Assembly (NCBI GenBank): GCA_037142615.1
Contig: JBAXAI010000012.1
Span: 26,415 to 90,414 of the forward strand
DNA from: Spirochaetales bacterium
GTDB lineage: Bacteria; Spirochaetota; Spirochaetia; JABEVK01
Reading direction: 5' to 3'
DNA: 64,000 nucleotides
The notes beneath the pieces were generated by a model. That model worked only from the letters and a program-made list of their open reading frames with translations, had not been told where the DNA came from and made no database searches. Shown piece after piece: positions 44,967 through 63,537 of this stretch. Within the stretch, counting starts at the first letter, position 1; each line of letters opens with the position of its first letter. A program made the position numbers and the translations under genes.

Positions 44967-47294
44967 ATGCTTCGTTTCCTTCTGGTCTTTCTGCTGGTTT
45001 TCCCGGTTCTGGACGCTCAAGTCATTCAAAAACAAACGCTTTATACCACCGCGAAGGTGGAAGGCGGAGTCACTGTCACGGTAGATGGCCAAACCTTCGG
45101 ACCCTATCAGGGGGTCGAGGGAGTACCCGCTTTTTCGGCCGACCTGCAGCACTGGGCTCTCGTGGCTCGCAAAACTGGCCCCGGGAACGCTCACGAGGTG
45201 CTGGTTGATGGCAAGAGCGCAACGACGTTGGACCAATACAATGGCCTGATGGGCCTTTCGCTCACCGAGGACGGCAAGACGTGGAGCCTGGTCGCGGGCC
45301 TGAGCACCAACTCACGGCAGAATGCCGTGCGCATCACCAATGGAGTTGCATCCCCGCCGCTGGGCAATGTCGGGCCCCTGGTGGGGTCTCCCGACGGCAA
45401 GAGCTCGTACTTCGTGGCCGAAAGCGACAAAGGCCGGGTTGTGGTGCTGAACGGAAAAGTGCTGGGACCGTTCCAAGACGTCCGTTTCGCGGCTTGGGAC
45501 CTGGGCGGCTCCAAGCTGGCGTTCAGTTTTTCGCGCGGTGGCTCCTGGTTCCTGTGGACCGATGGGAAAGAAGCGGGACCGTTTCAGGACGCGCAGCCCA
45601 TCACCCGCGCCGACGGGGCCTGGCTGGGAACTTCGACCACCGACAAGGCCAACAAGACCACGTTGAACATCGGCGGCAAGGCCTATGGGCCCTACGATTC
45701 CGTCGCCCCCAACCTCGACTGGAAGAGTGCCGACGGCACCAAATGGATGACCCGCGCCTACAAGAAAGGTGTGGCCTACCTGGTCGACAATGGCAAAGAG
45801 ACCAAGCTCGACTCGCTGGATTTCCAAACCCTCCCCGGCGGAAGTTGGGTGGCCCGCTACGGCGGCTTTGCGAATTGGAGGCTGAACATCGACGGCCAGG
45901 TGCTGGGCCCCTACGACGCACCAAGCACACCGCTGGCGTTTGCCGACGGCTCGAACTGGGCCTTTTCGTACGGAACCCTTCCCAACGACCCCACCGAGAA
46001 GTATTTCATCCGCTTGAAAAACGGCAAGACCTATCCAGGTGCGCACCTTAAACTCATCGCCGACGATCAAGGTCAGGCGTTCACCTGGTACACCGACGAC
46101 CGCCAAGGGCCGCTGGTATTCAGCCGGGTCGACAAGTCGGGCTATCAAAGCACGACGCTGGTGACGGTGGTCCCCTCGCCGCCCGACGGTATCACGTTGC
46201 AGGCCGAAAAAGTGACCTCCGGCCCCTACGCCGAAGTGACCGGGTGGGCAGCTTCTCCCGATGGTAGGCATTGGGGCGCGCTGGTCCGGCTCAGCGGTGA
46301 CCGCTACCAGGTGGTGGTCGATGGCCGCGAAGGTGCACCGACCGGGGCCCTGACCCACGTCGGCGACCTGCAGATCAGTGGCAACGGTGCCTCGTGGAGC
46401 TTGCGGGGCTGGCCCACCAAGGGGAGCGACTCCCAGGTACGAATCGTCAACGGTGTTATGGCCGGTCCGTTCCAGTCGCCGTGGCCCGTGATGTTTTCGG
46501 CCGACGGTTCGCACTCTGGCTATTGGAGCCAGTCCCTCAAGGGCAACCAGAAGCAGCTCAACTTCGACGGCAAGCAGTACGGCCCGTACGCCAAAGATCA
46601 GCTGCAGCACCTGTACGACCTCGATGCCGGCCACTTTGCGTTTGGCATGCCCGACAAAGGCGGCACGCTGGTCGTGACGGACCAAGGCAACTTCGGTCCT
46701 TTCCAGGACTACCGCATTCTGCCCAAGCGGGAGCTGGTGCGCGATTCAGAGACCGGAAGTCTGTTTGGCTTCACGGCCCGCAAGTCAGACGGTTCCACCG
46801 TCCTGTACGTGTTTCCGGGCGTTCCCGGTGGTGGAGTGACCTACGGGCCCTTCCAGAATCTGAATGGCAATGGACAGGGTGCCGTGACCCAGGGCGACTG
46901 GTACTTTCTGGGCCAAAAATCCGGCAGCCCCAGCCAAACCCTGCTGCACAACGGCGAGGCGACTGAGGTGCGCGGGGCCGACGTGCGCGTCCTGGCCTCA
47001 GGCGGAGTGCAACTGCGTGTTTGGGAAGAAAACCAGGAAACACTGACGTTGAATGGCCGCAGTCTGGGTTCTTGGACCCACGTGAACCAGTGGTTGGTTG
47101 CCGACGACCAAAACTGGGCCGCCGAAGTGCAGCAAGGGGAGGGCCCGCAGTCTCGCAATCTTCTGGTCATCAACGGCCAGGAGCTCACGGGGACAGACCT
47201 CAAGCTTATTGGCAGCCCGGGTCGCCAAAGCTTCCAGTGGTTCTCGGTGACACCCGAAGGCAGCGGCGTGCGCAATACGTTGGCCCTCCCATGA
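44967..47294 (+). CDS. secreted repeat protein (at least ten ~60-90-aa modules each containing G-P-[FY]-x-[DS]-[VA]); possible beta-propeller
   Basis: 775 aa. Signal peptide. Recurring motif ...NGKVLGPFQDV / GKAYGPYDSV / GQVLGPYDAP / GNFGPFQDY etc. GGAGG RBS. Confidence 0.55.
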   Translation: MLRFLLVFLLVFPVLDAQVIQKQTLYTTAKVEGGVTVTVDGQTFGPYQGVEGVPAFSADLQHWALVARKTGPGNAHEVLVDGKSATTLDQYNGLMGLSLTEDGKTWSLVAGLSTNSRQNAVRITNGVASPPLGNVGPLVGSPDGKSSYFVAESDKGRVVVLNGKVLGPFQDVRFAAWDLGGSKLAFSFSRGGSWFLWTDGKEAGPFQDAQPITRADGAWLGTSTTDKANKTTLNIGGKAYGPYDSVAPNLDWKSADGTKWMTRAYKKGVAYLVDNGKETKLDSLDFQTLPGGSWVARYGGFANWRLNIDGQVLGPYDAPSTPLAFADGSNWAFSYGTLPNDPTEKYFIRLKNGKTYPGAHLKLIADDQGQAFTWYTDDRQGPLVFSRVDKSGYQSTTLVTVVPSPPDGITLQAEKVTSGPYAEVTGWAASPDGRHWGALVRLSGDRYQVVVDGREGAPTGALTHVGDLQISGNGASWSLRGWPTKGSDSQVRIVNGVMAGPFQSPWPVMFSADGSHSGYWSQSLKGNQKQLNFDGKQYGPYAKDQLQHLYDLDAGHFAFGMPDKGGTLVVTDQGNFGPFQDYRILPKRELVRDSETGSLFGFTARKSDGSTVLYVFPGVPGGGVTYGPFQNLNGNGQGAVTQGDWYFLGQKSGSPSQTLLHNGEATEVRGADVRVLASGGVQLRVWEENQETLTLNGRSLGSWTHVNQWLVADDQNWAAEVQQGEGPQSRNLLVINGQELTGTDLKLIGSPGRQSFQWFSVTPEGSGVRNTLALP

Positions 47295-49683: not shown

Positions 49684-49819
49684 ACGCCAATAGTAATTGC
49701 ACCGGGGCCCGGCGTAAACAGCAAAGAAGTCGACTATTCCGTCCTAATCCCCGTCAACAACCGCCAACGCCGGTCAGGGGCAGACACGAGCGCCCGGGCC
49801 GGTGTATGTTGGCGCACCT

Positions 49820-51658
<1,839 letters not shown>

Positions 51659-51695
51659 TGGAGGGGGGCGTCCCCCCCCTGCGCTCCATAAAAAA

Positions 51696-51720
51696 GGCGG
51701 CCCTCGGGCCGCCTTTTGTT
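51696..51720 (+). terminator. rho-independent terminator of typA (GGCGGCCC-TCG-GGGCCGCC + TTTTGTT), preceded by a G7/C8 hairpin
   Basis: Seen directly. Flanks GCGCTCCATAAAAA and TTTGTTATTGCGCTACCCC are repeated at 63604-63660. Confidence 0.65.
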
Positions 51721-51763
51721 ATTGCGCTACCCCCGTGCGGGGACACCCCTCAAGGCCCGATGG

Positions 51764-51794
51764 TTCGCAAGACTCCGTTGCCCATGCTATAAAG
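51764..51794 (+). promoter_or_regulatory. candidate sigma70-type promoter for the island operon (TTCGCA-18bp-TATAAA)
   Basis: Hexamers at 51764-69 and 51788-93, 20 bp upstream of gene start at 51814. Confidence 0.3.
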
Positions 51795-51813
51795 ATGTTC
51801 GGAGTCCGAACAC

Positions 51814-54800
51814 ATGCGAACCGTAAGAGACCTCTGTACAATTCAGCCCGGTGCCCTCGATGTCAGCGTTTCCGATCAGATCGAACGCCTCGACCAATTG
51901 ATCAACGAAAAAGGCGATGGCAGGGAGTTTTTTGACAAGACATTTGTCACGGAAGGCATGAAAGCGATGCTTACCGAGGGGTTTGCGCGCCTCTCGGGGA
52001 AGTCCTCACAGGCACTGTTCCACCTGAAACAGGCGATGGGTGGGGGAAAAACCCACCTTCTAGTCAGTTTTGGACTCTTGGCCAAGAGCGTCGATCTTCG
52101 CCGCTTGGTCACCCCCAACATCGCCTATCACGAGTCTTTCGTTCCGGCCAAGGTCGCCGCCTTCACCGGACGAAACTATCCCAACGAATACTTCTGGGGC
52201 TCTTTGGCGAGCCAACTTGGTAACCCCGCGCTCTTTTCCCGCTATTGGACCAATGGACCGGACGCCCCAGGTGAGGATGCGTGGCTCCAACTGTTTGACG
52301 GTGACCAACCCATACTCATCCTGCTTGACGAATTGCCACCCTACTTTAACTTCTACCGAACCAAAGAAGTCGGCCAGGGGACTGTTGCAGATATAGCGAC
52401 CAGTGCGCTCTCCAACATGTTTTCGGCGGCTAGCAAGAAGGCGAATGTCTGTGTCGTGATCGCCGATCTTAATGCCGCTTACGAGAAAGGCGCCGCGGGG
52501 ATCAACCACGCGCTCGAGGACGCGAAACAGGAGCTTGGTCGGGGGGCAAAAACCATTACACCGGTTGACTTGGCCGGTAATGAAATCTACGCCATCCTAC
52601 GCAAACGTTTGTTCGCCTCGCTGCCAAGCCAGAGTGCCATCGACGAAGTAGCTGCCGGCTATGGAAGGGCGATCGCCGAGGCCAGCCGGGCCAAGATGAT
52701 CGGTCGGTCAGCCGAGGCGATCGCCGACGAAATCAGCCAAACCTACCCGTTCCATCCCAAACTCAAGAACCTCATTGCGTTGTTCAAGGAGAATGAACAG
52801 TTCCGGCAAACACGTGGCCTCATGGAATTGGTTTCCCGACTTCTGAAGAGCGTGTGGACCCGCGAACTGAACGACGTCTACTTGATTGGCCCGCAGCACT
52901 TTGATCTGTCGATCTCCGAGGTTCGCGACAAGCTTGCTGATATTTCCGACATGGCCGACGTGATTGCCAAAGACTTGTGGGACGCCAACGGTGCCGCACA
53001 TGCTCAGGTGATTGACGCTGATACCCAAAATGACGCTGCTCGCATTGCAGCGAATCTCGTGTTCACCTCGAGCCTTTCGACCGCGCACAACGCGGTTCGC
53101 GGCCTGACTTCCGAGGAAATTCTGGAATGTGCCATTAGTCCGTTTCAAGATGCTGCCAGCATCACTACGGCATTGGAGCAACTCAACTTGCAGGCATGGT
53201 ACTTGCACCACTCGGGCGAAGGGAAGTACTTCTTCGACAGGGTCGAGAACCTGACCAAGCTATTGCAGGACCTCGCGGAGAAGGCACCAAGACCTCAGGT
53301 CGACCAGGTGATTCAGAAGAGACTATCCGATCTCTTTCAGCCGACCCGCAAAGTTGCGTACGAAGAAATGATCGCGCTCCCGACTCTCTCGGAGGTGGAA
53401 GACACTATCCGAAAAAAGCGAGTCCTACTCATTCTACCCCCTGAGGGTAAGATCCCTTCCGACGGACTTGAGAAGTTCTTCCAGTCGATTCAGTCCAAAA
53501 ACAACTTGTTGGTGCTGACCGGGGAAAAGAGCGTGATGGACAACCTTGAGGCCAAAGCAAGGTACGTGTTCGCATCCATCAAAGCTGAATCCAGAATCCC
53601 CAAGGGACACGCTCAGCGTGAAGAACTCGAGCGGAAGCAAGAACAGTACTCTGCTGACCTTCTGACCGCGACCCTCAACACGTTCGATAAGGTAGTGTTC
53701 CCCACCCAACGTTCGGGTCAACAGGCTCGCCTTGTCTCCAAGCCGCTTTCTCAAAGCTATAACCAGAGCAAACCTTACAATGGTGAACAGCAGATAGAGG
53801 CCACGTTGGCGGCGGACCCTCTGAAGTTGTATGTCGATGTTGCCCAAGATTTTGAGGCGATTCGCGACAAAGCGCAGGATTTACTGTGGCCGCAAGGGAG
53901 CGACGATACGAGGTGGACGGACGCTCGAGAGCGGGCAACTCAGGAACCGGCCATGCCCTGGCTACCGTCCGTAGGTTCCGCAGGTCTCGAACTCGTGAAA
54001 CAACTGGCTCTCAGCCATGGCAAGTGGGAAGATCTGGGGAACGGATACGTCACCAAGAAACCCCGCCCCAAGAAGGCGTCGTTGCAGATTTCGCAGGAGT
54101 CGGAGCCCGACGACGAAGGCCGAGTCCGCTTGAGGCTGGTACCTCAGAACGCAGGCAATCAACCCAAAATCTACGTTCAGGAAGAAGGGTCGGTCTCACC
54201 TTCCAGCCCAGTTCATCTAGATACACTGTTTTCAACCAAAGCCTTGTGGGCCGAGTTTCTTGTTGTAGACCCTTCGGGCCAAGCCCTGCCCGGTGAGCCA
54301 ATACGGTGGGACAACGAGCTGGTGATTCGTCATCGGGTAAGCGGTCAAGGAGCCCACCGAAGCGTGGAGTTGTACCTGTCGCCGCGCGGAAAACTTTGGT
54401 ACAGCCTCGATGGTACAGAACCTCGAAACGGTGCCTCCTATGATGGCTCCTTCGAAGTCGCAGAAACGGGAGGCCGGCTGCTTGTCTATGGCAAAGCCGA
54501 CGCCCTTGAAAAAAAGGCTGACTTCACGATTCCGGCAGTTCAGCAAAACGAAGTCACCTTCGACGAGAGTCGGCCCGCAAGTCTAGTTCGGCCTTCACCG
54601 TTTCGCCTTGACTCGCGACAGAAGACATTCGAGCTCTTGGAGCTAGCTGCAACCCAACAAGTGGTGTTTTCCAAACTCTCGCTGGCCGTCGGCCAAATGG
54701 CTTCTGCGATTTCGGTGACAATCCCACAGAAAGAAGTTAGCGCCGAGTATCTTCTGAAGATTGTGAAGGCCATTAGCGACGACCTGCCAGCCAGCGAACC

Positions 54801-54906
54801 TATCACTTTAGGGTTTTGCCGCGCCCAGTTTCGCCTTGGCAAAGAGCTCAAGGAGTTCACCGACCGAGCTGGCTTCAATCCGCAGGCAGGAGACATTGTT
54901 CAGTGA
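51814..54906 (+). CDS. large P-loop NTPase (about 1030 aa; Walker A-like MGGGKTHLL near N-terminus), possibly DUF499-type defence ATPase
   Basis: Walker A GGGKTH at aa about 75. Hydrophobic-DELP Walker B-like (ILILLDELPPYF). No other recognisable domain. First gene of coupled operon. Confidence 0.55.
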   Translation: MRTVRDLCTIQPGALDVSVSDQIERLDQLINEKGDGREFFDKTFVTEGMKAMLTEGFARLSGKSSQALFHLKQAMGGGKTHLLVSFGLLAKSVDLRRLVTPNIAYHESFVPAKVAAFTGRNYPNEYFWGSLASQLGNPALFSRYWTNGPDAPGEDAWLQLFDGDQPILILLDELPPYFNFYRTKEVGQGTVADIATSALSNMFSAASKKANVCVVIADLNAAYEKGAAGINHALEDAKQELGRGAKTITPVDLAGNEIYAILRKRLFASLPSQSAIDEVAAGYGRAIAEASRAKMIGRSAEAIADEISQTYPFHPKLKNLIALFKENEQFRQTRGLMELVSRLLKSVWTRELNDVYLIGPQHFDLSISEVRDKLADISDMADVIAKDLWDANGAAHAQVIDADTQNDAARIAANLVFTSSLSTAHNAVRGLTSEEILECAISPFQDAASITTALEQLNLQAWYLHHSGEGKYFFDRVENLTKLLQDLAEKAPRPQVDQVIQKRLSDLFQPTRKVAYEEMIALPTLSEVEDTIRKKRVLLILPPEGKIPSDGLEKFFQSIQSKNNLLVLTGEKSVMDNLEAKARYVFASIKAESRIPKGHAQREELERKQEQYSADLLTATLNTFDKVVFPTQRSGQQARLVSKPLSQSYNQSKPYNGEQQIEATLAADPLKLYVDVAQDFEAIRDKAQDLLWPQGSDDTRWTDARERATQEPAMPWLPSVGSAGLELVKQLALSHGKWEDLGNGYVTKKPRPKKASLQISQESEPDDEGRVRLRLVPQNAGNQPKIYVQEEGSVSPSSPVHLDTLFSTKALWAEFLVVDPSGQALPGEPIRWDNELVIRHRVSGQGAHRSVELYLSPRGKLWYSLDGTEPRNGASYDGSFEVAETGGRLLVYGKADALEKKADFTIPAVQQNEVTFDESRPASLVRPSPFRLDSRQKTFELLELAATQQVVFSKLSLAVGQMASAISVTIPQKEVSAEYLLKIVKAISDDLPASEPITLGFCRAQFRLGKELKEFTDRAGFNPQAGDIVQ

Positions 54907-55490
54907 ACAATCTGCCCCAGTTTGAAGACTTTGGTGCACCCACTAGGGTGGGCTCTCACATCTTCTTGGTCGATATTCCCATCAGTCGTTCAGAGCCGGT
55001 TCTCATTCTGGAAAACTATGGCTTCCTTGGCGGTGAACGGGGTATTCCCGAGAAGGAAACCCGCGTCAGTCTGAATCGCAGCCATTGGTACGGTATTTCG
55101 GAGATCGCCCGACAAGACTTCAACGATCGGCTCAAGGGCAAGAAGATGACGACGAGCCGATGGACGACCGGCCTGAACAAACTCGACAAGCTATTGGGCA
55201 AAGAACTCTGCGTGCTAGCCTGGGCAGCAGAGCAGTCGTCGTTGGAACAGCTGCCCATCGTTTGCCACAGGTGGGTGTCGCTCCGACCAGAGGAACGCTG
55301 GTGGTTGTTTCGCATGACTGTCGCCGAGGCAGGGCTGGCGCAAGACCTCGACCGAGGCTGGCGAAAGGCCCTCCACTTTGCTCTTTCTGATGGTAAGATT
55401 GACGAGCGGCGCATCAAGCGCCCCCGACCCGATGACGACGACGAGGATTTGTCGTTGTTCGGTGGTTCCGTGCAGGAGGTTCACCAGTGA
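54903..55490 (+). CDS. small protein (195 aa) with acidic C-terminal tail (RPRPDDDDEDLSLFGG), function unknown
   Basis: GTG overlapping upstream stop (GTGA). Always-coupled position between the large NTPase and the AAA ATPase. Confidence 0.45.
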   Translation: MNNLPQFEDFGAPTRVGSHIFLVDIPISRSEPVLILENYGFLGGERGIPEKETRVSLNRSHWYGISEIARQDFNDRLKGKKMTTSRWTTGLNKLDKLLGKELCVLAWAAEQSSLEQLPIVCHRWVSLRPEERWWLFRMTVAEAGLAQDLDRGWRKALHFALSDGKIDERRIKRPRPDDDDEDLSLFGGSVQEVHQ

Positions 55491-56533
55491 TTAGCCACCT
55501 CAGCGTTGAAAACTTTGCGGCACTGGAGCAGGCCGAGCTCGACTTTTCCCCGGGGCTGAATGTCATCCTGGGCGAGAACAGCACCGGCAAAAGTTTGCTG
55601 ATGAAATTGATGTATTCCGGCGCTTGGGTCAGCCACTCCTTGGGGAAAGGCGACCGCAAAACCAAAGATGAGCTGCAGCGAGCCATAGCTGACAAGCTGA
55701 AGGCAGTGTGCATTCCTGAATCTCTTGGGAGACTCGTTACCCGGAAGGCGGGCCGAAATCGGTGCACGGTTCGGGTATCGTTCAGCGAACCCCAGAATGC
55801 CTCATTCGGGTTCTCATTCGCCACAAATAGCGATCGTGAAGCCAAACTCGACGGCGCCACCCCCGAAGGCTACCTGAGCTCATCGCCTATTTTCATTCCA
55901 ACAAAAGAAGTTCTTTCGGTGTTCCCCAATTTTGCAGCGACACTTCGCTCCAAGCACCTCTTCTTTGACGATACATACCTTGATTTGCTCGACGCACTCG
56001 ACCAGCCAGTCAACAAAGGGGCCCCCAAGAAGGACGAAAGAGAACTCCGGGATTCACTGGAGCAGGCAATGGCGGGTCGCGTTGTGTTCGACGGAGGCCG
56101 CTTCTACTACCTGCCCGAAGCAGAGGGCAAAGGGAAGATTGAAATGCCGTTGGTTGCCGAAGGCCTACGGAAGATTTCGATCTTGACCTACCTAGTGATG
56201 AACGGTGGCCTGCGCAATAAGTCTCTCTTATTCTGGGACGAACCTGAGGTTAACTTGAACCCCAAACTGATGCGCAGACTTGCCGTCGTGTTGGTCGACA
56301 TGGCCGAGCGCGGGGTTCAAGTGATCCTTGCCACTCATAGTCTGTTCTTGCTCCGCGAGTTGGTCATTGCTCGCGCCAGTAGCAAGACGAAAGAACCCGT
56401 GCGTTTCTTTGCCCTTTCGAAGCAAGGAGACACGCAGAGGGTGACGCAAGGTGACTCGGTCGAAGAGGTCGACCCGTTGGCCAGTCTCGATGCGGAACTG
56501 GAACAGAGCGATCGGTACCTGGAGCTTCCTTGA
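55487..56533 (+). CDS. AAA/ABC-type ATPase (RecF/SMC-like, AAA_21-like: Walker A GENSTGKS ... Walker B LLFWDEPEVNL ... ATHS)
   Basis: GTG start overlapping upstream stop. P-loop at N-terminus, Q/signature region, D-loop and H-loop spacing typical of the OLD/AbiEii/Septu-PtuA-type ABC ATPases. Confidence 0.7.
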   Translation: MISHLSVENFAALEQAELDFSPGLNVILGENSTGKSLLMKLMYSGAWVSHSLGKGDRKTKDELQRAIADKLKAVCIPESLGRLVTRKAGRNRCTVRVSFSEPQNASFGFSFATNSDREAKLDGATPEGYLSSSPIFIPTKEVLSVFPNFAATLRSKHLFFDDTYLDLLDALDQPVNKGAPKKDERELRDSLEQAMAGRVVFDGGRFYYLPEAEGKGKIEMPLVAEGLRKISILTYLVMNGGLRNKSLLFWDEPEVNLNPKLMRRLAVVLVDMAERGVQVILATHSLFLLRELVIARASSKTKEPVRFFALSKQGDTQRVTQGDSVEEVDPLASLDAELEQSDRYLELP

Positions 56534-57072
56534 TGCAAGTCTTCGACGAGCAGGGAATTGCGTTTGCCTTTCCTGACGACTTTGTCGTTTTTCGCCCTCA
56601 ACACTCCGTTTTTTACAGAAAGTTGTGGCAGCGGTTTTCGATCCCCGACGCGGCGGGCGAGAAAGGAAACAAAGAAGCTGACTTCGTTGCCGTCGACCGA
56701 AAGGAGCAACGCCTTTGGCTCATCGAGGCCAAGGACTATCGTGTCCACGAACGCACCAAGCCCGGGTCACTGTCGCAGGAGTTTGCCCGCAAATGCCGCG
56801 ATTCGCTGGCATTGTTGGCCGCGTTGCAGCTCAGTAGCACCGCAGCCGAGGTTGGCGAAACAGCGAGCGGGCTGTTGGATGGTCTCAAGAAGGTTTCTTG
56901 CGTCTTGCACGTCGAGCAGAAGGCAGGTGAAAAACTTTTCCCGCTGGCGGTCAGACCCACTGACCTGAAAGACGCACTGCGTCGCGAACTACATGCCCTT
57001 GACCCCCAGGCGCTCACGGGTACGGCTGCGGAGCTCGCAACACTTCAACTTCCCTTCACCATCACCGTCTAG
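56533..57072 (+). CDS. small PD-(D/E)XK-like putative nuclease (motif D-x19-EAK: ADFVAVD...LWLIEAKD)
   Basis: 179 aa. ATG overlaps ATPase stop (TGATG). D/ExK arrangement consistent with restriction-endonuclease fold (inference). Confidence 0.4.
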   Translation: MQVFDEQGIAFAFPDDFVVFRPQHSVFYRKLWQRFSIPDAAGEKGNKEADFVAVDRKEQRLWLIEAKDYRVHERTKPGSLSQEFARKCRDSLALLAALQLSSTAAEVGETASGLLDGLKKVSCVLHVEQKAGEKLFPLAVRPTDLKDALRRELHALDPQALTGTAAELATLQLPFTITV

Positions 57073-57080
57073 GAGCCCCC

Positions 57081-59042
57081 ATGCCAGTAGTTCCCTTTTC
57101 CCTCAAAGAAGCACCGGCGTTGATCGAAACGCTGTTCCCGGCCCAGAAGTTGTCGATCGAAGCGTACAAGGAACAGATGGCGGGCAGCGGCAAGACCTTG
57201 ACCGCTTTGGGAAGCTACTGGAAGGGCCGCAAGCCGCTCATCTTGAACCGTGCCTGTGTCTTGGGCTGCCTGCTGCCGGTGACTGCCAACCCCATCCGGG
57301 ACCTCGAGATTTTCGAGAAGCTAATGGCCATGGACGAAACCGCGCTAACTCACCGTCTCAAGGCCAAGAACGACAAGAAGAGTCGCTCTCTTATTTCCAG
57401 CTATCAACATAAGGTCGATGCCGCCTGTCGCCCCGAGGAGTGCGACAACACTTTGTACGACGGGATTTGGCCCGAGGTAAACGCTCACTTGGGCACCGAA
57501 GCGACGAGCTTTCCCGAGTTGGTGGAACAGCTGGGAATCATGCGCTTTGGCCACCGTCCCCGGTTTGCCGACGTGTTTTCGGGCAGCGGGCAGATTCCCT
57601 TCGAGGCCGCCCGGCTGGGCTGCGACGTGTACGCCAGCGACCTGAACCCCGTGGCCTGCATGCTTACTTGGGGCTCGTTTCATTTGGTGGGTGCCCAGCC
57701 CGAGGAGCGGCAAGAGATTGCAGTGGCGCAGGCACGGTTGGTGCAGAAGGTGCAGTCCGAAGTCGATGCCTTGGGCATCGAGAACGACGGCAAGGGATGG
57801 CGGGCTAAGGCCTTTCTGTATTGCGTCGAGGTAAGGTGCCCCCAGACAGGCTGGATGGTGCCGCTGATTCCCAGTTTGATTGTCAGCCAGCCACGTACGG
57901 GCGAGGTGCGCAACAACGTGGTGGTTCAGCTGGTTCCCCTGCCCGCCGAAAAGCGCTACCGCATTGATGTGGTTTCGTTCGCCACTGAAGCCCAACTGGC
58001 TCAAGCCGAACTCGGCACCGTACAGGGCGGCGAGATGGTGCATTCGCCCGACGGTACCAAGGTGTACCGCACCAAGATCAGCACCTTGCGGGGGGATTAC
58101 GCCGAGGGCGGCGAAACCAAGAACAGGCTGCGAATGTGGGAAAAGCATGACTTTGTAGCTCGGCCCCACGACCTATACCAAGAGCGACTGTACTGTGTGC
58201 AGTGGCTTCGCACCAAAGCCGCTGGCCGGGGGCAGGAGTACGAGTTCCGGTCGGTGACTCCCGACGACCTGACGCGCGAGAAAACAGTGATCGACTTTGT
58301 GGGATCACGGCTGGCCGAATGGCAGGCCAAGGGTTGGGTCCCCGACATGGTGATCGAGGCCGGGGCCAAGACCGACGAGCCGATTCGCACCCGGGGCTGG
58401 ACTCACTGGCACCACCTGTTCAACCCGAGGCAGTTGCTGGTGGCGGGGTTGGTGCGGCAAAACATCAACTCCACCACGGCGTTCGGACTGTCGCAGGTGA
58501 TCAACTGGAACAGCCGGTTGTGTCGATGGAATATGGGCAGCGGTGGCGGTGGCAGTATCCAGGACGTATTCTACAATCAGGCTCTCAATACTCTTTTCAA
58601 CTACGGTTGTCGTAACACAGCTCTGGCCCTTACCCAGGTCGACCTCGGTGCCAGGAGCTTTCCTTTCGCCAAAGGAGTGAAGGCTGAAGTGAAGACTCAC
58701 GCGGCCAACGCCATCACCGCGCCCACCGATCTGTTCATCACCGACCCGCCGTACGGCGACGCCGTCAAGTACGAAGAAATCCTCGAGTTCTTCATCGCCT
58801 GGCTGCGCAAGAACCCGCCTGCCGAGTTCAAAGGTTGGGTGTGGGACAGCCGCCGGGTGATGGCCATCAAGGGTGAAGACGACAAGTTCCGGCAGGCCAT
58901 GATCGACGCGTATTCGGCCATTACGCGTTGTATGCCCGACAACGGTATGCAGGTCATCATGTTCACCCACCAGTCGGGCAGCATTTGGGCCGACATGGCG
59001 CACATCGTGTGGGCGGCGGGGCTGCAGGTCACGGCGGCGTAG
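57081..59042 (+). CDS. N6-adenine DNA methyltransferase (motif I FxGxG: DVFSGSGQIPFE; motif IV DPPY: FITDPPYGD), terminated by in-frame TAG
   Basis: AGGAG RBS. SAM-binding motif near aa 165 and DPPY near aa 545 with a large intervening region. Ends at TAG 59040-42. Confidence 0.75.
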   Translation: MPVVPFSLKEAPALIETLFPAQKLSIEAYKEQMAGSGKTLTALGSYWKGRKPLILNRACVLGCLLPVTANPIRDLEIFEKLMAMDETALTHRLKAKNDKKSRSLISSYQHKVDAACRPEECDNTLYDGIWPEVNAHLGTEATSFPELVEQLGIMRFGHRPRFADVFSGSGQIPFEAARLGCDVYASDLNPVACMLTWGSFHLVGAQPEERQEIAVAQARLVQKVQSEVDALGIENDGKGWRAKAFLYCVEVRCPQTGWMVPLIPSLIVSQPRTGEVRNNVVVQLVPLPAEKRYRIDVVSFATEAQLAQAELGTVQGGEMVHSPDGTKVYRTKISTLRGDYAEGGETKNRLRMWEKHDFVARPHDLYQERLYCVQWLRTKAAGRGQEYEFRSVTPDDLTREKTVIDFVGSRLAEWQAKGWVPDMVIEAGAKTDEPIRTRGWTHWHHLFNPRQLLVAGLVRQNINSTTAFGLSQVINWNSRLCRWNMGSGGGGSIQDVFYNQALNTLFNYGCRNTALALTQVDLGARSFPFAKGVKAEVKTHAANAITAPTDLFITDPPYGDAVKYEEILEFFIAWLRKNPPAEFKGWVWDSRRVMAIKGEDDKFRQAMIDAYSAITRCMPDNGMQVIMFTHQSGSIWADMAHIVWAAGLQVTAA

Positions 59043-59045
59043 TAC

Positions 59046-59915
59046 GTGGTCACCGAAACCGACAGCGCCTTGCGCGGCAGCAACAACGTCAAAGGAACAG
59101 TGCTTCTGGTACTCCGCAAACGACAGGGTGAACACAAAAGCAGCCGCAGCGACTTGGGGTGGGAACTGCAAGAAGAAGTCGACCGGCAAGTGCAGACTCT
59201 GACCGGTCTGAACCAGAGCGCGAAGACTCTGTACCGAGACGAAAACTTGTTCAGCGACGCCGACCTACAGATGGCGGGCTACGCGGCGGCGCTGCGAGTG
59301 CTTACCCGGTACACATTCATCGACGGCAAAGACATGCGTATCGAGGCCGGGCGCCCCAAACAGAAGGGCAAGAAGGACTTTGTCGAGCAGCTGATCGACT
59401 TTGCCGTCGAGACCGCCAACGGGGCTTTGGTCCCCTTGGGGCTGGAACGTTCCGTGTGGGAAAAGCTTACCCCCGGCGAGCGGTTCTACCTCAAGATGAT
59501 CGACCTCGAGTCGCAAGGGGCCAAGTCGCTCGACAACTACCAAAACTTCGCCAAAGCGTTCAAGGTGCCTGACTACCGGCTGTACCTGGCCGAAGACCGG
59601 GCCAACCATGCCCGCCTTAAGTCAGGCGCCGATTTTGGACGCAGCGAAATGTCCGACTCTTCCGAACTGGCGGGCACCCGGCTCCGGGGCTTGCTGTATG
59701 GCTTGATGGAACTGGGCCAAGGCGTCGAGTCCGACGATGTGCTGGGTCACCTGAGTCTGAACGTGAAGAACTACTTCAACTGCCGTTTGGAACTTGTCGA
59801 AATCGCCGACTTCTTGGCCGCCAAGCTGGAGCACCTGGACGCCGACCAGGCCAGCCACGCACGCGTGCTGCGCGACCTGGTACGCCACCAGAAACTCGGC
59901 GCCTGGGAAAACTGA
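59046..59915 (+). CDS. C-terminal continuation of the methyltransferase reading frame (289 aa, same frame, separated only by TAG + one codon)
   Basis: 57081 and 59046 are both congruent mod 3. E plus F would give about 944 aa. Either a split gene or nonsense-interrupted pseudogene. Confidence 0.5.
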   Translation: MVTETDSALRGSNNVKGTVLLVLRKRQGEHKSSRSDLGWELQEEVDRQVQTLTGLNQSAKTLYRDENLFSDADLQMAGYAAALRVLTRYTFIDGKDMRIEAGRPKQKGKKDFVEQLIDFAVETANGALVPLGLERSVWEKLTPGERFYLKMIDLESQGAKSLDNYQNFAKAFKVPDYRLYLAEDRANHARLKSGADFGRSEMSDSSELAGTRLRGLLYGLMELGQGVESDDVLGHLSLNVKNYFNCRLELVEIADFLAAKLEHLDADQASHARVLRDLVRHQKLGAWEN

Positions 59916-62665
59916 TGCCGATTCGACGTTTTTCCTCGCTGCACGAGCGCCTCGACAAGAGCTTTCTGGCCGAACACCTCAAGGGTGCCCGCTCATATCG
60001 CCGCATCGCCGGGTACTTCCGGTCGTCCATCTTCGAGCTGGTGGGCGAAGAAATCGCCGGTATTCCCGACGTACGAATTCTGTGCAACAGCGAACTCGAT
60101 GTGCACGACATCAATGTAGCCCAGGAAGCCAGCCGCAACGTTGCCTTGAAGGAAAAGTGGAATCAGGTTCCTGTGGAAGTGGAAGGGCTACTCCACAAGC
60201 ACCGTTATAGGGCCCTCTACGACTTGCTCATGGCCGGAAACCTGAAGATCCAGGTGGTTCCCAAAGACAGCGTGTTCGTGCACGGCAAGGCGGGCGTCAT
60301 CGAAGGCGCCGATGGCAAGCGGATCGCCTTCTTGGGCTCGATCAACGAAAGCAAGTCGGCGTTCCTGACCAATTACGAAATTCTTTGGGAAGACGACAGC
60401 CCGGAAGGTGTCGCGTGGGTCGACCGTGAGTTTGACGAGCTTTGGAAGCGCAGCTACCCCTTGCCGCAAGCCATTATCGAAGAAATCGGCAGAGTGGCCA
60501 ACCGAACCGAGGTCAGGTTCGAGGATTTAGAAGACGCCGACATTCCCGCCTCGGCGTTGGTAGAGGCGCCCATCTACCGTGGCGGCGAGCAATTGCAGCC
60601 CTGGCAGCGGTCCTTCGTGACGCTATTTCAGAAGCATCGCGATATGTACGGCAAAGTACGCCTATTGCTGGCCGACGAAGTCGGGTTGGGAAAGACCCTC
60701 TCACTGGCCACCGCAGCGATGGTGGCCAACCTCATGGGCGATGGCCCCGTTCTCATCCTGTGCCCGGCGACCTTGGTGTGGCAATGGCAGGTCGAACTCA
60801 AAGATCGGCTGGGGATTCCCAGCTGCGTGTGGGAATCCAGCAAGAAGGTTTGGGTCGACCCCGAGGGCCGGGTGATCCCTACCAAGGGTGCCGAAGACAT
60901 CGCCAAGTGTCCCTTCCAAGTCGCCATTGTCTCTACGGGGCTCATTTTCCAATCGTCCCGCGCGCGCGAACCCGAGGTGTTGTTGCAGCGCCGGGGTGGC
61001 TACGGAACTGTAGTGCTGGACGAGGCACACAAAGCCCGCAAGCGCGGTGGCCTGGGCCAACGTGACGCCGAACCCAACAACCTGCTTGAGTTCATGCTCC
61101 GCATTGGCGAGAAAACTCGACACCTGCTTTTGGGAACGGCGACGCCCATCCAAACCAACGTGGAAGAGCTTTGGGACCTCATGGAGATCCTTTCGGTCAA
61201 GGCGGAGTTCGTGCTGGGTCGGGAAACGCCTTCTTACTGGCGCCGCATGGACTTCGCGCTCCCACTGATCAAAGGGGAATCGGTACCTGAAAGTGCGCTC
61301 GAAGCTTGGGATCTGCTTCGAAACCCACTGCCACCGATTCAGGAGACCTGCGAACCGGCTGCGATGATTCGGACCCTGCTCGAGTTGGAAGACAGTCGAT
61401 TCTTCGTTCCTACAGGATACCATCAGCTCGATCCGACCGTTCAGATGCAGGTAGACCAAGCTATGGAACCAGGTTTTTTTCGCGAACATAACCCTTTGCT
61501 CAGGCACGTCGTCTTGCGGAAACGGGCCCGATTGGAAGACTTGGGTCTGTTGGAACGCATCCGTGTCGACGTTCATCCGGACCCTGAATTGGGCCCTGGA
61601 GCCTACCCCGGAATCCCCTTTGCCGTAGAGGGACAGGGACTCCTGACCAATCAACCGTTCAACCTAGCTTACCGAGCTGCCGAGGAATTTACGCGCCTCC
61701 TTGCATCCAAAGTAAAGAGTGCGGGGTTCATGAAGTCCCTGATGCTGCAACGAATCTGCTCGAGCTTTGCGTCGGGACTTTCGACAGCCCGAAAGATCAT
61801 GGCAAAAGCAATCTTGGGCGACTCGGAAGATGAATCCCAATCGATGTCTGCCGTCTACGACGCCATTGGCGAAGAAGAACTCGCCCAACTGCAGATCATT
61901 GTTGACGAGCTTTCGCGGCCGGAAGCCCGTGACCCCAAACTGGGGGCGGTGAAGCATTTTCTGCTGGAACATCGGTCCGCGTTTGATGACACTTTGGCTC
62001 AACCTCACAACTGGCTCGAATACGGGTGCATCATCTTTTCGCAGTACTACGACACTGCGCTCTGGGTGGCGAAAGAGCTCGCCAGGGTGCTCCCCGACGA
62101 ACCGGTCGGTGTCTACGCTGGTTCAGAGAAGAGTGGGATCTACCGCAACGACGACTTCAGTAGCGTTGAGCGTCATCAGCTCAAACTTGCGGTCAAAGAT
62201 CGAAGTATCCGGCTCATGGTGGCTACCGACGCGGCGTGTGAGGGACTCAACCTTCAAACCCTTGGAACACTAATAAACGTTGACCTCCCGTGGAACCCGA
62301 GCCGTCTGGAACAACGTCTGGGCCGCATCAAGCGCTTTGGTCAGGCTCGCAGAAGCGTCGACATGCTCAATTTGGTCTACCACGACACCCAGGACCAGAA
62401 GGTCTATTCAGTGATTTCCCAGCGACTTAAGGACAAGTTCGACATTTTCGGCAGCCTTCCCGATACGATCGACGACGAGTGGATTGCCGACGAGCAAACA
62501 TTGGAAGAGCGACTAAATCAGTACCTCCATCTCCGTGATCAAGCCAAGAATGCGTTTGAACTCCGCTATGAAGATGACGTCGACCCCGAGAAGAATCGAT
62601 GGGAGCTTTGTAGCCGAGTTCTCAGTCGAAAGGACATCGAAGAGAGAATGGCAAAGAGTTGGTAA
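59915..62665 (+). CDS. PLD-family (HKD) nuclease domain fused to SNF2/DEAD-like superfamily 2 helicase
   Basis: N-terminal HxK...D / GSxN (VHGKAGVIEGADGKRIAFLGSINESKSAF). Helicase motif I LLADEVGLGKT, II VVLDEAHKARK, III LLLGTATPIQ, C-terminal helicase domain (MVATDAACEGLNLQ, QRLGRIKRFGQ). ATG overlaps upstream stop (TGATG). Confidence 0.8.
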   Translation: MPIRRFSSLHERLDKSFLAEHLKGARSYRRIAGYFRSSIFELVGEEIAGIPDVRILCNSELDVHDINVAQEASRNVALKEKWNQVPVEVEGLLHKHRYRALYDLLMAGNLKIQVVPKDSVFVHGKAGVIEGADGKRIAFLGSINESKSAFLTNYEILWEDDSPEGVAWVDREFDELWKRSYPLPQAIIEEIGRVANRTEVRFEDLEDADIPASALVEAPIYRGGEQLQPWQRSFVTLFQKHRDMYGKVRLLLADEVGLGKTLSLATAAMVANLMGDGPVLILCPATLVWQWQVELKDRLGIPSCVWESSKKVWVDPEGRVIPTKGAEDIAKCPFQVAIVSTGLIFQSSRAREPEVLLQRRGGYGTVVLDEAHKARKRGGLGQRDAEPNNLLEFMLRIGEKTRHLLLGTATPIQTNVEELWDLMEILSVKAEFVLGRETPSYWRRMDFALPLIKGESVPESALEAWDLLRNPLPPIQETCEPAAMIRTLLELEDSRFFVPTGYHQLDPTVQMQVDQAMEPGFFREHNPLLRHVVLRKRARLEDLGLLERIRVDVHPDPELGPGAYPGIPFAVEGQGLLTNQPFNLAYRAAEEFTRLLASKVKSAGFMKSLMLQRICSSFASGLSTARKIMAKAILGDSEDESQSMSAVYDAIGEEELAQLQIIVDELSRPEARDPKLGAVKHFLLEHRSAFDDTLAQPHNWLEYGCIIFSQYYDTALWVAKELARVLPDEPVGVYAGSEKSGIYRNDDFSSVERHQLKLAVKDRSIRLMVATDAACEGLNLQTLGTLINVDLPWNPSRLEQRLGRIKRFGQARRSVDMLNLVYHDTQDQKVYSVISQRLKDKFDIFGSLPDTIDDEWIADEQTLEERLNQYLHLRDQAKNAFELRYEDDVDPEKNRWELCSRVLSRKDIEERMAKSW

Positions 62666-62900: not shown

Positions 62901-63537
62901 GCACGAGCCCATCGAGCACCGCCACATCGACTGCGAAGAAAGCTACACCGGCATCGTCACCGAAAAGCTGAGCATGCGCAAATGCCGCATGACCAACATG
63001 GTCAACCACGGCAGCGGTCGCGTGCGCCTGGAGTTTTCGGCCCCCAGCCGCTCGCTCATCGGTTACCGCGACGAGTTCCTCACCGATACCAAAGGCACCG
63101 GCCTGATGAACAGCTACCTCGCCGGCTACGAACCCTACCGCGGCGAAATCCCGAGCCGTAACAACGGCTCTTTGGTGTGCGACCGCCAGGGCGAAGCCGT
63201 GGCCTACGGCATTTTCCACCTCGAACCCCGCGGCCGCATTTTCGTGGTGCCCGGCGACAAGGTGTACGAAGGCATGATCGTCGGCGAACACAACCGCGAC
63301 CTCGACCTCGACATCAACGTGTGCAAGGAAAAGAAACTCAGCAACATGCGCTCCGCCGGCAAAGACGACAACATTTTGCTCACGCCCGTGAAGCCCATGA
63401 CGCTAGAGGCCAGCCTGAACTTTTTGCGCGACGACGAGTGGCTGGAAGTGACCCCGAAGAATTTGCGGTTGCGGAAGCAATACCTGGGGATTGCGGATCG
63501 GAAGCAACACAGTAAGAAACTCAACGACGGGGTGTAG
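62901..63537 (+). pseudogene. typA: diverged duplicate of the 3' terminal ~640 bp of typA (encodes C-terminal about 211 aa of TypA, no 5' part)
   Basis: Aligns with 51022-51658 at roughly 90% nucleotide identity with mostly synonymous differences. Encoded peptide nearly identical (…DKVYEG… vs …DKCYEG…). Confidence 0.8.

Follow-up and report, generated by a model that had tools for sequence, protein, structure and literature searches.

A probable MtsD orthologue, effector of the MANTIS defence system, beside an interrupted methylase gene in a Spirochaetales bacterium

We describe here an open reading frame (ORF; 59915..62665, + strand) in a 64,000-nucleotide stretch of DNA from a Spirochaetales bacterium (contig JBAXAI010000012.1 of assembly GCA_037142615.1), which is referred to below as the window and to which all coordinates apply. 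The ORF encodes a phospholipase D (PLD)-type nuclease joined to an Snf2-type helicase, and we have very little doubt that its product is orthologous to MtsD, which acts as the effector in the MANTIS defence system. The same system also goes under the names Gao_RL, Gao_29 and Type-2 DUF499-centred BREX-related (BR) system, its genes being designated MtsA to MtsD. Fusions of the MtsD type are already known: they are catalogued in PADLOC and NCBIfam, and have been studied genetically and structurally. What might pass for a new DISARM-type fusion is then, in all likelihood, the standard effector of a catalogued and experimentally validated system, so that its value is mainly that of a negative result, and the only points worth noting at the locus are a nonsense codon in the adjacent methylase gene mtsC, a pair of HEC-02 genes embedded in the operon, and a partial duplication of the housekeeping gene typA.

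The fusion protein and its family

The main features of the gene are as follows.

59915..62665, + strand: mtsD, encoding a single-HKD PLD nuclease plus an Snf2-type superfamily 2 (SF2) helicase; ATG start, 916 amino acids (aa), intact; matches in Pfam, PADLOC and NCBIfam
60281..60349, + strand: PLD catalytic motif, H123-x-K125 ... G141-S142-x-N144-E145; invariant alignment columns
60587..61198, + strand: helicase N-lobe, residues ~225-428 (LQPWQ, GLGK260T, DEAH at 369-372, TATPIQT); Pfam SNF2-rel_dom and motif conservation
62012..62464, + strand: helicase C-lobe, residues ~700-850, with motifs IV, V and VI; Pfam Helicase_C and PDB matches to RapA motifs V-VI

A first-pass annotation, made by reading the sequence without database searches, had proposed a single-HKD PLD domain N-terminal to an SNF2-type helicase, and had suggested domain annotation as a check. 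The Pfam domains and the aligned motifs agree with that proposal: PLDc_2 covers residues 21-177 (E 3.6e-12), SNF2-rel_dom residues 247-428 (E 4.3e-14) and Helicase_C residues 705-809 (E 1.4e-12). The PLD signature, F-V-H123-G-K125-A-G-V-I-E130 ... G141-S142-I-N144-E145, departs somewhat from the HxK(x)4D...GSxN that had been placed at residues ~125-150, in that His, Lys and GSxN are all there, but the first element reads HxK(x)4E and the whole lies at residues 123-145. In alignments of 25-30 sequences, with homologues drawn from several phyla, H123, K125, G141, S142, N144 and E145 are invariant, including therefore the catalytic His and Lys, loss of which had been envisaged as an argument against a nuclease. 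The position separated from the motif lysine by four residues, occupied here by E130, may be E, D or H across homologues, so the 'D' of HKD is not diagnostic in the MtsD family.

The helicase motifs I to VI, which had likewise been predicted to be complete and to have SNF2-like spacing, can all be read: Walker A is DEVGLGK260T, motif Ia LILCPATL, motif II D369-E-A-H372, motif III GTATPIQT, motif IV IIFSQYY, motif V ATDAACEGLNLQ and motif VI QRLGRIKRFGQ. Walker A K260, the DEAH box and motifs III-VI are invariant in the alignments of MtsD homologues. The two RecA lobes lie ~270 residues apart (residues 429-700), as in Snf2 proteins, and the chain stops ~100 residues past motif VI, with no extra C-terminal domain. 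Since the PLD signature and all of the SF2 motifs are present and conserved, the fusion itself can be taken as confirmed. As an aside, a 7-residue insertion (FDDTLAQ, residues ~688-694) stands directly before motif IV and is absent from all aligned homologues.

Three further genes of the operon correspond to the other members of the system.

51814..54906, + strand: mtsA, a DUF499 AAA+ ATPase of 1030 aa; Pfam DUF499, PADLOC DUF499 (1370 bits, full length), NF042962 (1329 against a cutoff of 1200)
54903..55490, + strand: mtsB, a DUF3780 protein; Pfam DUF3780 (221 bits), NF042961 (217 against a cutoff of 200)
57081..59915, + strand: mtsC, a DUF1156 N6-adenine methyltransferase whose frame is interrupted by TAG; PADLOC DUF1156_MTase, NF042963

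Assignment to the family rests on profile scores set against curated cutoffs, because the 6 loci given by the scan of genome contigs would not have sufficed for a helicase-core tree that included DrmD, BrxH and type ISP enzymes. NCBIfam equivalog NF042964, 'phospholipase D-like domain-containing anti-phage protein', is matched at 1186.6 bits (cutoff 1100) by residues 2-916, on positions 2-895 of the 895 of the profile, and PADLOC PDLC02193 (PLD_Helicase) at 1371.9 bits by residues 1-916, on 1-905 of 905. NCBI already has an identical protein under the equivalog's name, encoded on a 125-kb contig of a Spirochaetales metagenome-assembled genome. Among 8,000 candidates scored, more than 5,200 were homologues with E < 1e-10, and full-length identity is at least 62% for each of the best 120. 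Three of the four core proteins (MtsD, MtsA and MtsB) exceed their curated family cutoffs over their full length, with the matching PADLOC models in agreement. The gene order DUF499, DUF3780, DUF1156, PLD-helicase recurs in two metagenomic relatives (L007 and L009, with MtsD 76% and 74% identical to this copy), and the same core order is found on annotated plasmids of Bacillus cereus (L010) and Pseudomonas fluorescens (L011).

mtsD is the last gene of a tightly coupled operon on the + strand, in which most junctions have overlapping stop and start codons (GTGA or TGATG); at the mtsC/mtsD junction a TGATG overlap points to translational coupling. The likely start of mtsB is GTG 54903, which overlaps the mtsA stop codon as GTGA, rather than the mechanically assigned ORF start at 54816: the Pfam DUF3780 match begins at residue 37 of the long ORF, and the L007 homologue (199 aa) likewise has a 4-nt overlap.

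All of this fits what has been published about the family. Type-2 BR systems occur in 1,120 taxa, and the HKD-helicase fusion is retained in 921 taxa; the hallmarks are an HKD endonuclease placed N-terminally on an Snf2 helicase and a standalone gene for DUF3780, present in 98% of loci (PMC12839542). The fusion had been presented in the first-pass annotation as a departure from an arrangement of separate genes; on these figures it is the norm of its family. Gao_RL/Gao_29, described as 'restriction-like', had been shown earlier to restrict phages before it was renamed MANTIS (10.64898/2026.09.23.753747). In the Pseudomonas aeruginosa system of that study, MtsC hemimethylates asymmetric 6-bp sites, and does so only if MtsA loads it in an ATP-dependent manner and MtsB stimulates it; restriction requires MtsA to MtsD together with the PLD His (H122) and the Walker A Lys (K260) of MtsD, and is strongest with inverted pairs of unmodified sites (10.64898/2026.09.23.753747). 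The loss of restriction in the H122A and K260A mutants bears out the earlier presumption that a nuclease-translocase is the restriction component of such systems (10.64898/2026.09.23.753747). In cryo-electron microscopy at 2.2 Å, MtsD is a dimer in which two nuclease domains form one PLD site above two helicase-like ATPases, and which resembles the type IV enzyme SauUSI (7CLG; 10.64898/2026.09.23.753747).

The present protein resembles MtsD of P. aeruginosa AZPAE15024 in its single HKD PLD domain, Snf2-type helicase, short C-terminal tail and length (~900 aa), and its operon partners and gene order are also alike. Catalytic H122 there corresponds to H123 here, whereas Walker A K260 has the same number in both, and the homologue on the Pseudomonas plasmid is 48.6% identical to the present protein over its full length. 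This copy differs from the P. aeruginosa system in having no MtsR repressor gene upstream, a HEC-02 pair between mtsB and mtsC, a TAG codon in mtsC and the insertion at residues ~688-694.

How might such a protein act? The scheme that follows is the one published for P. aeruginosa, and would apply by analogy to this copy; its cleavage and translocation steps are a model, since the nuclease activity has not been reconstituted in vitro. MtsC, the N6-adenine methylase, would recognize a short asymmetric site, leaving host DNA hemimethylated, and would methylate only once the AAA+ ATPase MtsA had loaded it onto DNA and the DUF3780 protein MtsB had stimulated it. Where incoming DNA has unmodified sites, MtsD would be recruited or licensed by the MtsABC complex, and in the MtsD dimer the paired single-HKD domains would make up one metal-free PLD active site (H123 and K125 in this copy). 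The two Snf2-type motors (Walker A K260) would use ATP to travel along DNA and so bring about communication between sites, cleavage being strongest between inverted site pairs.

Other possible identities

Structural comparison has limited force here. The AlphaFold2 model of MtsD, a monomer built from a 30-sequence alignment of homologues all at least 63% identical, is poor (mean predicted local distance difference test score 60.8, predicted template modelling score 0.34), and the top Foldseek matches in the PDB, RapA (6bog) followed by SauUSI (7clg), are statistically significant (E ~1e-8) but have a template modelling (TM) score of ~0.16. With so poor a model and so low a TM score, these matches give weak support. 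A sequence search of the PDB found no solved MtsD structure; the best matches were RapA (E 1.2e-12) and eukaryotic Snf2 remodellers, for the helicase motifs only, and the isolated PLD domain gave weak matches to the single-HKD nuclease NucT (E 0.006) and, at equivalent positions (104-188 against 102-186), to SauUSI.

DISARM also joins a PLD protein, an Snf2 helicase and a methylase. It was the frame of reference of the first-pass annotation, and this framing was apt in so far as the gene appears to encode the restriction effector of a methylation-based system, but DISARM is an analogue only: the two enzymatic modules are the same, yet they are separate genes there (DrmC and DrmD), and the defining components of DISARM are DrmA and DrmB (DUF1998). 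A DISARM variant in which DrmC and DrmD have become fused seems to us very improbable. DrmD is indeed the best-scoring helicase model outside the MtsD family (PADLOC 135.5 bits; NF038317 169.4 bits), but the NF038317 score and that of NF038318 (119 bits) lie far below their curated cutoffs (610 and 950) and cover the helicase only in part, and the partners are instead the DUF499, DUF3780 and DUF1156 proteins that define MANTIS or Type-2 BR systems. When the seven operon products were scanned with Pfam, PADLOC and NCBIfam, nothing matched DrmB/DUF1998, and DrmA was matched by MtsD alone, whose partial 91-bit PADLOC match to DrmA runs across shared helicase motifs. With DrmD cutoffs missed and no DrmA or DrmB among the operon products, membership of DISARM was rejected. 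Just as improbable is a type IV restriction enzyme of the SauUSI kind (PDB 7CLG), modification-dependent, attacking methylated foreign DNA by itself, with unrelated neighbours. In SauUSI, which is ATP-dependent, an SF2 helicase likewise comes after an N-terminal single-HKD PLD domain, and the dimer shares one PLD site; SauUSI ranks second among the fold matches, its PLD domain aligns weakly at equivalent positions, and the MANTIS authors report the likeness too. However, SauUSI carries its own target-recognition domain, works alone and cuts modified DNA, whereas MtsD has no such additional C-terminal domain, needs MtsABC and targets unmodified DNA. The present mtsD is, moreover, translationally coupled to mtsC, its relatives always lie within a four-gene operon (L007, L009, L010 and L011), and in the genetics of the model system MtsD depends on MtsA, MtsB and MtsC: Pseudomonas MtsD expressed without MtsABC gave neither protection nor toxicity, as reported for that system. 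For want of an extra C-terminal domain, given the operon coupling, and with a 7CLG fold match that spans 413-429 columns at low TM, assignment to the SauUSI-like class was rejected.

Least probable of all is a housekeeping Snf2 ATPase of the RapA/HepA type, associated with RNA polymerase and bearing an accessory domain, an outcome that the first-pass annotation had itself considered. RapA, which in Escherichia coli recycles RNA polymerase, provides the closest solved helicase core in both sequence and fold (best PDB sequence match and top fold match), and BR and BrxHII helicases are known to parallel RapA architecture (PMC12839542), but the matches are confined to the helicase motifs and the score for the RapA equivalog NF003426 is 84.4 bits where 576 is required, whereas the protein does pass the MtsD equivalog. 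The N-terminus, too, is a PLD nuclease with intact catalytic residues rather than Tudor domains, and the gene lies within a defence operon in a lower-GC, horizontally acquired island, whereas RapA has no nuclease domain and a housekeeping context. On the missed equivalog cutoff and the gene context this identity was rejected.

HmaA (of Hma, a Type-1 BR system) and BrxHII (of type 3 BREX) have a homologous Snf2 core and, as partners, homologous DUF499/BrxC-like ATPases and N6-methylases; they differ in an N-terminal Tudor domain and, for HmaA, a C-terminal PD-(D/E)xK nuclease, both replaced here by the N-terminal HKD domain, and here DUF3780 is present. Hma was rejected on a partial HmaA match (110.8 bits), the PLD N-terminus, the short tail and the presence of DUF3780, and type 3 BREX on partial BrxHI and BrxHII matches (105 and 91 bits), the finding of no PglZ, and an ATPase that matches DUF499 and not BrxC (DUF6079). 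The PADLOC DpdE model also gave a partial match to MtsD, of 82 bits.

The interrupted methylase gene and the state of this copy

59040..59042, + strand: in-frame TAG in mtsC in place of an invariant Trp codon; sequence, translation and alignment with five relatives

The coupling of the fusion gene to a DPPY adenine methylase, noticed in the first reading, is borne out by the neighbouring gene, in which FxGxG (residue 166) and DPPY (residue 555) are intact; that reading had nothing to say of the methylase frame, which an in-frame TAG divides into pieces of 653 aa (57081..59042) and 289 aa (59046..59915). The gene is colinear with its relatives, the two pieces matching positions 2-651 and 654-944 of the 944-position PADLOC DUF1156_MTase profile, and each scores below the NF042963 cutoff of 1000 (929.5 and 305.1 bits). 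In five uninterrupted relatives (from a Spirochaetia metagenome-assembled genome, two metagenomic contigs, and Bacillus and Pseudomonas plasmids, thus spanning several phyla) the column that holds TAG here is Trp, within ...GLQVTAAWYVVTE..., and from this invariance the lesion can be put down to a single TGG-to-TAG transition. It lies ~100 residues past DPPY, in a strongly conserved stretch, where, to judge from the class I methyltransferase fold, it would cut off the last strands of the catalytic domain of MtsC and remove the C-terminal domain. Three nucleotides downstream of the TAG there is an in-frame GTG, at 59046. Recoding of TAG was rejected, the relatives having plain Trp and the coding of the window being that of an ordinary high-GC bacterium.

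What would such a lesion do to the system? In P. aeruginosa, deletion of mtsC abolishes restriction without causing toxicity, whereas a catalytically dead but targeting-competent MtsC is toxic or lethal unless MtsD is also mutated (10.64898/2026.09.23.753747). A nonsense mutation in mtsC next to an intact nuclease-helicase gene fits the published result that without MtsC the system is disarmed and the cell is not killed, and because of that result an inert state, with neither methylation nor restriction, is to be favoured if the stop is real and is not bypassed. We consider the chances a little better than even that this copy is inert in this way, its MtsD being intact but unlicensed.

A different view, which we rate as distinctly less probable though far from negligible, is that a system of the same MANTIS family is fully active here, the TAG being a minority allele or an error of sequencing or consensus, or else the two pieces of MtsC together forming a working methylase. 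It can be argued in its favour that the lesion is one TGG-to-TAG transition in a gene that is otherwise colinear with, and ~70% identical to, its relatives and has no other lesion, that every other gene of the operon is intact, that a GTG in frame follows 3 nt past the TAG, and that the DNA appears to come from a metagenome-assembled genome. Against this, the stop falls within a conserved stretch and, by inference from the fold, within the final strands of the catalytic domain rather than where two domains meet, and mtsC is uninterrupted in 5/5 relatives.

Some reservations bear on our overall interpretation, that of an MtsD orthologue in a probably inert MANTIS copy, and should be weighed against it. 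The TAG, known from a single sequence, may be real, may have arisen through faulty consensus or assembly of a metagenome-assembled genome, or may be bypassed by re-initiation at GTG 59046. There is no sequence sign that this copy of the operon is expressed, the promoter scan having found no sigma-70-like promoter upstream of mtsA. Even in the model system, the nuclease activity of MtsD is still to be reconstituted in vitro (10.64898/2026.09.23.753747). Finally, the Foldseek matches of the predicted model agree with the published comparisons with RapA and SauUSI, but would count as weak support and not as independent proof.

The HEC-02 pair and the typA duplication

Between mtsB and mtsC, and translationally coupled on both sides, lie two genes that do not belong to the MANTIS core.

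55487..56533, + strand: ABC-type ATPase of HEC-02, 348 aa; PADLOC HEC-02 (355.6 and 287 bits), Pfam AAA_21 and AAA_15
56530..57072, + strand: small partner of HEC-02, 180 aa; PADLOC PDLC04145 (99 bits), no Pfam match

HEC-02 consists of an ATPase and a small, nuclease-like protein of NERD type; it was first found embedded in Hma, and protects E. coli from phage, both genes being needed (10.1101/2024.01.29.577857). Here it lies within a Type-2 BR system, Hma in the original description being of Type-1. The pair occupies the same position in L007 (5598..7183) and is absent from L009, L010 and L011; from its presence in L007 but not in L009 or the plasmid loci, it is a cassette inserted into some MANTIS operons. 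A module separate from the MANTIS core, it would still be expressed despite the stop in mtsC.

The operon is part of an 11.2-kb island of lower guanine-plus-cytosine (GC) content (0.55-0.60, against 0.62-0.65 elsewhere in the window), which is bounded by typA sequences.

49802..51658, + strand: typA/bipA, full length, directly upstream of the island; Pfam GTP_EFTU, EFG_C and BipA_C
51022..51656, + strand: left copy of a 635-bp direct repeat, corresponding to the 3' end of typA; sequence comparison
62901..63535, + strand: right-hand counterpart of that 635-bp direct repeat, with a 3' end of typA truncated at its 5' side, which forms the right bound of the island; sequence comparison

The copies differ by 35 mismatches, nearly all of them at third codon positions and all within the first 436 bp, the last 199 bp being identical. 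Homology goes no further than the stop codon, for which one copy has TGA and the other TAG. Integrase and tRNA genes that might explain the island were sought, and none was found. The pattern suggests one left by a single Campbell-type crossover between the chromosomal typA and a circular DNA that carried the island together with the typA 3' fragment of a related donor. In this respect, as in its nonsense-bearing mtsC and its embedded HEC-02 pair, the locus is of modest value as a natural example: a long duplicated stretch from the 3' end of a housekeeping gene bounds the defence island, which has no recombinase gene. It is conceivable, though in our view improbable, that the TAG is real and the locus is nevertheless still under selection, either through a split MtsC made by way of GTG 59046 or because the disarmed MANTIS genes serve as scaffold and promoter for HEC-02, the island in either case having been captured at typA by an integrase-free Campbell-type single crossover through the 635-bp foreign typA fragment. 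If true, this would show a defence cassette moving without a recombinase.

Some smaller observations concern the flank of the island. The 155-bp gap between typA and mtsA (51659-51813) contains no gene for MtsR, the Arc/CopG-type repressor. The scan for promoters and terminators gave nothing above shuffled background; in the raw sequence just past the typA stop codon, a GC-rich hairpin followed by TTTTGTT can be seen (~51696-51720), which the terminator scan did not list. Further upstream, an ORF of 775 aa (44967..47294, + strand) matches no Pfam family above cutoff (its sole match being a sub-threshold one to GYF_2), and its product has a signal-peptide-like N-terminus and many 'DGK..GP[FY]Q' repeats.

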